NCBI GenBank assembly: GCA_016935175.1
Contig: JAFGRK010000019.1
Span: 6,037-70,036, forward strand
Source: Candidatus Woesearchaeota archaeon
GTDB lineage: Archaea > Nanobdellota > Nanobdellia > Woesearchaeales > SM23-78
Direction: 5' to 3'
DNA: 64,000 nt
In this document: positions 13,952 through 60,525 of the stretch, one piece after another
How positions within the stretch are numbered: position 1 is the stretch's first letter
Layout: each line of letters opens with the position of its first letter
Notes under the pieces: generated by a model
Seen by the model: the letters and a program-made list of their open reading frames with translations, nothing else
Databases searched by the model: none
Told to the model about the DNA's origin: nothing
Position numbers and translations under genes: made by a program

Positions 13952-14128
13952 GGGCCTGTGGTCTAGCGGCTACAGCAAAAGAGCAGCTCTTTTGAGCTTG
14001 CGGCTTTTGCGCCGCAAATGATCCCACCTTCACATGCATTTGAGCAAAACTCTTTTGCTGAATGCGGTGGTGGTCGCCAGTTCGAATGAGCTTTTGCCAA
14101 AAAGCTAGCGAAAGTCTGGCCAGGCCCA
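13952..14128 (+). tRNA. tRNA-Val(CAC) interrupted by three putative introns (D-loop ~21/22, anticodon loop ~37/38, T-loop ~59/60)
   Basis: The exon pieces assemble into a 73-nt cloverleaf. The acceptor stem is GGGCCTG/CAGGCCC plus A. The D-arm is GTCT-AGCGGCTA-(46 nt)-TGAT. The anticodon arm is CCACC-TTCACAT-(30 nt)-GGTGG. The variable loop is TGGTC. The T-arm is GCCAG-TTCGAAT-(28 nt)-CTGGC. Each inserted block folds into its own hairpin(s). Confidence 0.7.
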
Positions 14129-19679: not shown

Positions 19680-19743
19680 AATGCTTCTATTGGAAGGGTA
19701 TTATATAAATCTTACTCAAAGATGGGTTGGGTAAAATCTCTTG

Positions 19744-19893
19744 AAAAGTGCTCTACTCGGCACCCCGTGGGGGCCGACCCCCGCCTCGCCACGCCATGCC
19801 AAGCCTTAACAGGCGTTGGCAAAGGTGGCGGTGCTCAGAGGCAAAGCCTCTGGCACCACAAAAGCAATGCTTTTGGCGGTGACGAGCACTTTT
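19744..19893 (+). ncRNA. Candidate structured RNA, copy 2 of the family (see 2021..2131)
   Basis: This is a GC-rich island in an AT-rich spacer. Its closing stem pairs AAAAGTGCTC with GAGCACTTTT. Internal helices are shared with copy 1 and carry compensatory changes. A palindromic TATA (TTATATAA, 19701-19708) lies ~35 nt upstream. Confidence 0.45.
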
Positions 19894-20006
19894 AAAGTAT
19901 ACGCCTCAAAAGTAGTCTATTAGCAAAAACTTTATATATTCAAAGCGATTTAGCAGGAGTATAAGTTTGCATGAATATCTCATGGTAATGTAGAGGAGGG
20001 ATTATT

Positions 20007-60394: not shown

Positions 60395-60525
60395 GCGGGT
60401 GTGCCGGAGTGGTCAAACGGGCATGGTTCAGGTGGCGAGAAGGAGGAAGCTTCTGAGGTTTCCTGCGCTCGCATGAAACGCCATGTGACTCAGTGTCTGC
60501 GCAGGTTCAAACCCTGTCACCCGCA
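60395..60525 (+). tRNA. tRNA-Leu(CAG), class II, with ~47-nt intron in the anticodon loop
   Basis: The acceptor stem is GCGGGTG/CACCCGC plus A. The D-arm is CCG-GAGTGGTCAAA-CGG. The anticodon stem is CATGG/CCATG with loop TTCAGG, then the intron. There is a long variable arm (GAC-TCAGT-GTC) and a T-arm GCAGG-TTCAAAC-CCTGT. Confidence 0.75.

Follow-up and report, generated by a model that had tools for sequence, protein, structure and literature searches.

We analysed a stretch of 64,000 nucleotides from Candidatus Woesearchaeota archaeon (assembly GCA_016935175.1, contig JAFGRK010000019.1, positions 6,037 to 70,036 of the forward strand), which is called the window below; coordinates without a contig name refer to it. 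The window has a G+C content of about 44% and belongs to a genome of the Woesearchaeota (DPANN). DPANN archaea possess tiny, streamlined genomes. Two intergenic loci in the window are the subject of this study. Copy 2 lies between the divergent promoters of the genes for a PRC-barrel protein and an AAA ATPase, and copy 1 lies between two co-directional genes at an operon junction, upstream of the gene for an RNase H-like protein. A first-pass annotation of the window had described the two loci as paralogous copies of a candidate structured RNA. We confirmed that both loci are real members of one family of three-armed elements of Woesearchaeota: they share k-mers that are unique in the window, they share the fold, and they have homologues elsewhere.

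Architecture of the two copies

The core of copy 2 spans 19744-19893. Its closing helix (P1) is formed by AAAAGTGCTC and GAGCACTTTT (19744-53 / 19884-93), within which the P1 5′ strand AAAAGTGCT (19744-19752) pairs with AGCACTTTT (19885-19893). The helix goes on for 3 bp past a G·A mismatch and the whole element therefore occupies 19740-19897. Copy 1 (2021-2131) is compact and possesses a divergent arm. Its closing helix is GTTAAAATAAGCCC/GGGCTTATTTTAAC (2021-34 / 2118-31), in which the P1 5′ strand GTTAAAATAAGCC (2021-2033) pairs with 2119-2131. Both copies have P1 at the ends of the element, an arrangement that we call P1-open, and P1 is bordered by an A-run and a T-run in both. The first-pass annotation had noticed this long closing helix, which differs in sequence between the copies yet stays paired, and all of the features that it listed were found in place.

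The junction follows directly after the P1 5′ strand. It reads TACTCGG at 19754-60 in copy 2 and TACTCAG at 2035-41 in copy 1, in agreement with the annotated TACTC(A/G)G. The strand CTACTC, at 19753-19758 in copy 2 (GAGUAG on the minus strand) and at 2034-2039 in copy 1, is invariant in all members of the family. The side arm of copy 2 (19759-19785) has a basal stem GGC/GCC, which encloses runs of C4-G5-C5. Two mutually exclusive hairpins, 63-66:70-73 or 69-73:78-82, are possible in this arm, and each of them is backed by one covarying pair (63:73, C-G/U-A; 69:82, G-C/A-U). These alternative hairpins may represent a switch or a coincidence. The arm of copy 1 (2040-2065) has a basal stem AGAT/ATCT and a weak inner hairpin, and is without sequence similarity to the arm of copy 2. 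An insert of 31-32 nt had been proposed for this part of both copies. This length is correct if TACTCRG is counted; otherwise it is too large, since 24-25 nt lie between TACTCRG and TCGCC.

The second helix (P2) is formed in copy 2 by TCGCCACGCC (19786-19795) and GGCGGTGACG (19875-19884), and in copy 1 by TCGCCGCGCC (2066-75) and GGCAGCGACG (2109-18); the P2 region of copy 1 (2066-2118) encloses an apical hairpin at 2076-2103. On the plus strand, P2 contains a C·A mismatch in both copies (C19789·A19882 and C2069·A2116), which is G·U on the minus strand. Both copies have a bulged purine in P2 (G19878 in copy 2 and A2112 in copy 1), and the pair A19791-T19880 of copy 2 corresponds to G2071-C2114 in copy 1. 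The apical hairpin of copy 2 (19797-19821) consists of 6 bp and 4 bp with a bulged G19815, and is the hypervariable part of the family. That of copy 1 is also two-tiered with a one-nucleotide 3′ bulge. Thus, the mismatch, the purine bulge, the covariation and the two-tier apical hairpin of the first-pass annotation are all present.

As a whole, both loci fold into a three-way junction: P1, the junction CTACTC(R)G, the side arm, and then P2 stacked on P1. The stacked P1 and P2 make one rod, and P2 bears the hypervariable apical hairpin. On the minus strand, an invariant single A and the invariant GAGUA strand flank the side arm, and at a distance of two base pairs from the junction there is an invariant U·G wobble. 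Compared with shuffled sequences, each locus folds far better on either strand (z from -4.2 to -7.6; none of 200 shuffles reached the observed value). A 14-mer, TCGCCRCGCCRTGC, and a 13-mer, GGCRGYGACGRGC, each occur only at these two loci within the window. A covariance model built on the minus strand scores copy 2 at 83.7 bits (E 1e-20) and copy 1 at 62.9 bits (E 8e-15); with filters off, it recovered exactly these two copies from the 64 kb window, and it also recovered all of the other members of the family.

Copy 2 possesses two extra hairpins, which had been annotated and which we read as 19830-58 and 19859-75. They belong to a lineage-specific insert of 48 nt (19834-19881) between 7-nt direct repeats of GGCGGTG (19827-33 and 19875-81); the boundaries of the insert can slide inside this repeat. 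A near-identical relative from sequencing run X4 lacks the 48 nt and reads GGTGGCGGTG followed directly by ACGAGCACTTTTT. Judged from the sequence, an even smaller hairpin element appears to have been inserted into copy 2 here. One of its hairpins has a CAAAAGC/GCTTTTG stem, which is also present in the inserts of the tRNA-Val gene at 13952-14128.

Relatives, covariation and the probable folded strand

Relatives were sought by aligning Logan contigs to copy 2. The 38-nt block 19753-19790, which consists of CTACTCGG, the arm and TCGCC, was found with 80-95% identity in at least nine contigs of a sediment metagenome (run X1). Contigs of several other runs also match this block, and beyond it both sides cannot be aligned. 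The relatives from runs X4 and X6 have the same P1 as copy 2 within different flanks, and the apical region of the X6 relative is different and shorter. In addition, GTDB genomes were searched with a three-block pattern and JGI metagenomes with a two-block pattern. Of the GTDB hits, 95 were chance matches in high-GC genomes, and two were true members: L197 (from a Woesearchaeota metagenome-assembled genome, MAG) and L202. The JGI search gave three true members, L218, L219 and L221, and one chance hit in a high-GC contig. An exact 37-mer and an exact 22-mer of the conserved block had no match in viral or JGI metagenome contigs, a loose two-block pattern gave only chance hits in viral contigs, and a search for miscalled open reading frames (ORFs) with the pseudo-ORF that reads through the element gave no candidates.

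Members of the family thus come from Woesearchaeota MAGs and from groundwater and sediment metagenomes, and their length is 95-160 nt. All of them have CTACTCGG, CCYGCCTCGCCAC(C)GCC and GGCRGGTGACG in common. P1, the apical helix and parts of the arm vary across members yet stay paired. Outside the window, L197, L202 and L221 are P1-open. In contrast, L218 and L219 have the order GCAACAACAAT-AAT-GGCAGGTGACG-P1 hairpin-CTACTCGG-arm-TCGCCACCGCC-ATTGTTGTTGC. In these members, the terminal helix is made of GCAACAACAAT at the 5′ end and ATTGTTGTTGC at the 3′ end, P1 is closed by a loop of 5 or 13 nt, and the 5′ strand of P2 is TCGCCAC(C/A)GCC. They are the element of the window cut at the apical loop rather than at P1, that is, an exact circular permutation with P1 loop-closed and the apical helix open. 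The loose ends in runs X1, X2 and X5 have the same permuted order, in which GACG is followed by a short hairpin and CTACTCGG. In L218, the open helix runs on into about 60 nt more of inverted repeats on each side. The permuted members (L218 740-1060 and L219 about 440-760) sit at the tip of a composite palindrome of about 300 nt with several extra hairpins. This palindrome has a z of -8.8 on one strand and -7.8 on the other, and its outer inverted repeats are kept between L218 and L219.

We aligned six natural members with the covariance model and examined their pairing. In this alignment, 88.3% of the cells form standard pairs, as compared with 77.0% after shuffling, and 13 pairs are changed on both sides, as compared with 5.3±1.7 after shuffling; none of 500 shuffles reached the observed values. 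When the partners were slid by 1-3 columns, pairing fell to 36-48%. Four unrelated P1 sequences are all paired. In P2, A-U is replaced by G-C at one position and C-G by A-U at another (L218 vs L219), and L197 and X6 have a base pair in place of the bulge. At the base of the arm, most members have the stem GGC/GCC; copy 1 has AGAU/AUCU, and a related family has GAC/GUC. The covariation in P2 and near the junction is the most telling, because template switching in DNA can regenerate long, perfect inverted repeats. Thus, the helices proposed from the two copies hold in homologues from other genomes with compensatory changes, and the pairing is better than chance.

The kinds of pairs differ between the strands. 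The curated helices of seven members contain 282 Watson-Crick pairs; on the plus strand, the remaining pairs are nine A·C and no G·T, and A·C on the plus strand is G·U on the minus strand. The nine A·C pairs represent three independent events, namely the invariant pair near the junction and one apical pair each in L202 and L221. The minimum free energy (MFE) of the minus strand is lower by 4.5-12.9 kcal/mol in all eight members compared. The pair-type count and the MFE difference, which comprise few events and are not mutually independent, consistently point to the minus strand of the window as the folded strand, as RNA or as single-stranded DNA, and we assigned it as the probable folded strand of both copies. 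The plus strand implied by the first-pass annotation is therefore less likely.

About 35 nt to the left of P1 (TACCTGCTAACAGCCTAAGGCTTTTTGAAATTAA, with a small hairpin) are kept between L197 (6286-6452) and L202 despite different neighbouring genes. Because these flanking nucleotides are conserved, the repeat unit in this subfamily extends beyond the three-way junction. On the right side of the L197 member, AGCAGGTA mirrors the motif TACCTGCT. A second three-armed intergenic family was found at L232 5203-5304 (minus strand) and L233 17125-17229 (plus strand). Its junction is different (no CGU/GCGA/GAGUA), and it shares only the G5-N-C5-N-G4-U arm with copy 2. Because the arm is common to the two families, their make-up is modular.

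Genomic sites, orientation and copy number

All of the members are found exclusively between genes. Their settings are divergent promoters (copy 2, L197 and L202), pairs of co-directional genes (copy 1, L221 and L233) and convergent genes. The neighbours of members include AAA ATPase/PRC-barrel, RNase H-like, UPP synthase-like, UMP kinase-like and MBL/deacetylase genes; L197, L202 and L221 are about 90% alike and stand beside unrelated genes. No paralogy was found between the neighbouring proteins of 346 and 352 amino acids. Because the neighbours are unrelated and the orientation varies, the family does not behave like a riboswitch or another cis-acting leader.

The copy-2 site was compared with ATPase orthologues and 10 kb on each side of them. 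In L222-224, in which the ATPase has 88% protein identity, the divergent promoters are conserved and are 19 nt apart, as compared with 208 nt in the window. L228 and L229 have no element at this site, and a sequence from run X3 skips 19721-19918. The palindromic TATA sequence at 19701-19708 had been taken as a sign of an independent transcript. It lies outside the element and is the TATA box of the leaderless ATPase gene on the minus strand, 25-26 nt from the ATG (19679). It is kept as TATTATATAAATCTTAC in L222, L223, L225 and L228, all of which are without the element. Because it is conserved in relatives that lack the element, this TATA box belongs to the promoter of the ATPase gene, and the claim of an independent transcript from it fails. 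In L225 (9440-9922) and L226 (9473-9925), a gene of 150-160 amino acids, to which no function was assigned, is present in the PRC-barrel/ATPase spacer where the window has copy 2. From these sequences, the spacer seems to be an insertion hot spot.

At the copy-1 site, L230 and L231 have a spacer of 6 nt and L232 has a spacer of 19 nt, all without an element. L233 has a spacer of 124 nt, which is occupied by a decayed and oppositely oriented member of the GCAAAG... subfamily. The decay of this member (L233 9890-9986) is seen in two A·G mismatches in P1, a degenerate P2 and an arm of only 12 nt. Judging by these sequences, two different members may have entered the same operon junction independently, or one may have been replaced. 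The inserts of copy 1 and L233 each precede a new Shine-Dalgarno sequence (AGGAG or GGAG) of the RNase H-like gene; the original Shine-Dalgarno sequence of this gene lay inside the end of the upstream gene.

Thus, both copies are lineage-specific inserts with kin in unrelated contexts and in both orientations, and the element is not a fixed RNA gene. It behaves like a dispensable insert that changes position. It is neither a regulator of the neighbouring genes nor a transcript from the TATA box mentioned above.

The ends of the inserts are variable. P1 is wholly different in each subfamily (AAAAGTGCT, GTTAAAATAAGCC, GCAAAGCCAAGMC and GATTTTGCC), and conserved terminal repeats were therefore not found; no parent insertion sequence (IS) was searched for. 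Copies 1 and 2 show no clear target-site duplication in a comparison of filled and empty sites that are too diverged to fix the ends; an 8-nt repeat, AATCAAAA, flanks L233 9890-9986 with an offset of 7 nt. We considered whether P1 had been copied from the target site, since the spacer of L222 (CTTAAAAGTGG) resembles P1 of copy 2. This was ruled out by the X4 and X6 relatives, which have the same P1 in other flanks.

An unbiased sample of about 190 kb of Woesearchaeota DNA contains three members (two in the window and one in L233). In the groundwater run X16, the summed depth of P1 and the core of the subfamily of L197, L202 and L221 is about 450-500, which is about ten times that of the flank (49), and the depth of the apical region is about 75-85 (45 contigs). 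In runs X14-X16, the depth of the apical region is low relative to that of the core. This depth pattern speaks for a large number of copies, which vary mostly in the apical hairpin; several species may contribute to it. None of the RNA runs searched contains the element sequences. Three small metatranscriptomes of the same study gave zero contigs with them, which is uninformative.

Nature and possible spread of the element

We think that the family is, on balance, probably a dispersed and mobile, non-autonomous intergenic repeat, which is conserved in structure and selected as a folded strand. As in REP/BIME-like repeats, its intergenic copies are dispersed in both orientations and their fold is conserved. 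Several points weigh against this reading. Neither a target-site duplication nor defined termini have been established, and the P1 termini differ by subfamily, unlike those of miniature inverted-repeat transposable elements (MITEs) driven by a transposase. The copies within this genome are very divergent, with two in 64 kb, and most 20-kb stretches from relatives contain none; this divergence and the low copy number fit old paralogous RNA genes equally well. The apparent covariation of P1 and the apical hairpin may in part be a renewal of inverted repeats by DNA template switching and not selection, and the excess of metagenome depth may come from many species and not from many copies per genome. 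No associated enzyme was identified, and no whole-genome protein search was made for one. No transcript or circular molecule was seen in the RNA data checked, which are uninformative on this point.

In a rival explanation, the members would be genes for trans-acting small RNAs, for example the RNA of an unknown DPANN ribonucleoprotein, which are transcribed from the minus strand and moved by rearrangement or duplication, and in which the apical hairpin or P1 could give specificity. The part that is kept best is internal (the 38-nt block and the junction) and not at the ends, the U·G wobble is conserved and the single-stranded GAGUA is invariant, and paralogues within a genome are far more divergent than orthologues between genomes, as in tRNA-like gene families. 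The strand asymmetry and the low copy number in DNA sampled without bias agree with this idea also. However, no promoter can be assigned on either strand, given that the TATA box near copy 2 is that of the ATPase, and copy 1 sits inside an operon junction only 4 nt from a Shine-Dalgarno site. Moreover, the element is missing at syntenic sites in close relatives, decayed copies such as L233 9890-9986 exist, orientation to the neighbouring genes is not kept, and no transcripts are known. We therefore regard trans-acting RNA genes as unlikely. Less likely still is a cis-acting module of mRNA with incidental spread, like REP, ERIC and BOX, which would act as a 3′-end stabiliser, a bidirectional terminator or insulator, or an intercistronic processing site. 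Such a module would suit a strictly intergenic location in divergent, co-directional and convergent settings. The A-run and T-run around P1 place oligo-T after a strong stem in either direction, and both strands fold well. However, the junction sequence, the wobble and the side arm exceed the needs of a terminator or stabiliser, and close relatives do without the element at the same sites. In addition, copy 1 would be a terminator-like stem before a gene that has no room for its own promoter, and the strand asymmetry of the fold is independent of gene direction, as is seen from copy 1 and the L233 member, which are inverted relative to each other at the same site.

Known RNA families were also considered. 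With Rfam 15 at gathering thresholds, the only match in the whole window is the tRNA at 60395-60525; in permissive local scans (E<=10), all hits were at chance level, with 11-17 bits where the gathering scores are 50-126, and a scan of the homologous loci gave nothing relevant. ARAGORN found no tRNA at either locus. The statement of the first-pass annotation that no known family matches was thus upheld. By eye, no motif of signal recognition particle RNA, RNase P RNA, H/ACA or C/D RNA, kink-turn, hepatitis delta virus-like ribozyme, twister, twister-sister, pistol or hatchet was seen, and these families gave no Rfam match. It is very unlikely, in our view, that the element is a new small self-cleaving ribozyme or an RNA that is processed into a circle. 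The family shows exact circular permutation with P1 or the apical helix open, and permutation of the open helix is typical of hammerhead types I-III and twister P1/P3/P5; the three-way junction is compact with about 15 invariant core nucleotides, and the genomic contexts are many and unrelated. However, no Rfam ribozyme matched even at E<=10, and no reads indicative of cleavage or circles were seen. The hammerhead itself was rejected, because its core (CUGANGA, GAA and UH) is missing on both strands and the element joins its helices by 0, 1 (A) and 5 (GAGUA) nt on the minus strand and by CUACUC/U/0 on the plus strand. A scripted search found no bulge-helix-bulge motif of an intron or circular precursor at the ends of either copy or of the 48-nt insert. 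It gave only loose off-boundary matches, which are on the minus strand of both copies (five in copy 2 and one in copy 1). In the multi-intron tRNA-Val gene (13952-14128), which was used as a control, the same search gave a candidate 30-nt intron (14035-14064) and several looser matches on both strands.

That a diverged known RNA was missed by Rfam, namely a multi-intron or permuted tRNA or a reduced 5S rRNA, is scarcely credible. The genome does contain tRNAs with several large introns, and the topology of the plus strand resembles 5S rRNA (helix I, a junction of 5-6 nt, a short arm, and a long arm that abuts helix I). Permuted mitochondrial 5S rRNAs have been described. However, neither strand can be drawn with a T-loop, D-loop or anticodon arm, and with the negative results of ARAGORN and Rfam, an intron-containing or permuted tRNA was rejected. 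As for 5S rRNA, there is no match to RF00001, the arm has only 27 nt, and the element is missing at syntenic sites. The topology of the plus strand is attractive for a reduced or permuted 5S rRNA, but the strand evidence is opposite, the element is dispensable, and there are several divergent and decayed copies. Furthermore, among 208 complete Nanobdellota genomes, of which 123 are from Woesearchaeales, the Rfam 5S model finds a normal 5S rRNA in 203 (bioRxiv 10.64898/2026.05.13.725050). The tRNA gene at 60395-60525 has a 50-nt intron and a 12-nt insertion in the variable region/T-arm approach; Rfam scores it at 42 bits and ARAGORN misses it.

In a comparison with known systems, the family resembles the bacterial REP/BIME (REPIN-RAYT), ERIC/IRU, Correia/NEMIS and BOX/RUP repeats, which are non-coding, intergenic, about 100-150 nt long and found in both orientations. 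Presence or absence between close relatives, a hairpin fold kept by paired changes, and mosaic modules are likewise common to the REP, ERIC, NEMIS and BOX types. In contrast to these repeats, the present family has an archaeal (DPANN) host, a three-way junction whose core is invariant and whose wobble is conserved, termini that vary by subfamily, and circularly permuted members. Unlike REPIN-RAYT, it has no identified RAYT/HUH or other partner enzyme, for which the proteins of the genomes were not searched. MITEs (Sulfolobus SM1-SM4 and those derived from IS5/IS903) are also small, non-autonomous intergenic inserts at varied places in related genomes, and nested insertion, here of the 48 nt with the 7-nt direct repeat in copy 2, is known among them. 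However, MITEs retain the terminal inverted repeats of their parent IS and produce a target duplication of fixed length, whereas only the interior is conserved here and the ends vary.

The permuted ribozymes (hammerhead types I-III and twister P1/P3/P5) are similar in having a multi-helix junction, a conserved core, any helix open and scattered contexts; they differ in their core sequences, which are not present here, and in the Rfam match and cleavage evidence that this family lacks. Integron attC sites, IS200/IS605 elements and REP hairpins, which fold as single-stranded DNA, are similar in that structure is kept over sequence, the fold is strand-specific, the terminal structure is variable and bulged bases are fixed. 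However, the R′/R″ core sites of attC (GTTRRRY/RYYYAAC) do not occur in the right arrangement here, and attC is a single imperfect hairpin and not a three-way junction. Also in contrast to attC and IS200-type elements, no linked integrase or Y1 transposase was identified, and the proteins of the genomes were not searched for one. The uncommon traits are the conserved interior with variable ends and the natural circular permutation; structured intergenic repeats are otherwise a known kind.

For the mobile, non-autonomous repeat that we favour, the following course may be proposed. The element would be, or would recently have been, mobile without encoding its own enzyme, and selection would act on the junction core as a folded single strand of RNA or DNA and not on terminal repeats. 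From the permuted members, we suggest that the element may spread via a closed, circular, single-stranded intermediate; this circle would be reopened at one of two hairpin tips, that of P1 or that of the apical hairpin, and the two arrangements would result. The inserted element would be tolerated only between genes, where it may take on a secondary role in transcripts as a folded spacer or terminator. A more specific and rather speculative version, which we hold to be improbable as it stands, is that the junction core (CGU/GCGA/GAGUA, the U·G wobble and the bistable G5-C5-G4 arm) is the recognition or catalytic module of a new archaeal element that moves as a closed single-stranded RNA or DNA circle, with the P1-open and apical-open forms as the footprints of reopening.

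Such elements cause spurious ORFs and assembly breaks (the unitigs branch at the apical hairpin), and can be mistaken for RNA genes or regulators. A full-text literature search found no paper that links DPANN or Woesearchaeota to MITEs, intergenic repeats or permuted three-way-junction RNA, and no such family is described in Rfam. Families of folded non-coding inserts are thus kept in the streamlined genomes of DPANN archaea. Their variable ends, conserved core, strand bias and permutation point to selection on a folded single strand, and this pattern provides a handle on how elements spread in organisms without obvious transposases for them.

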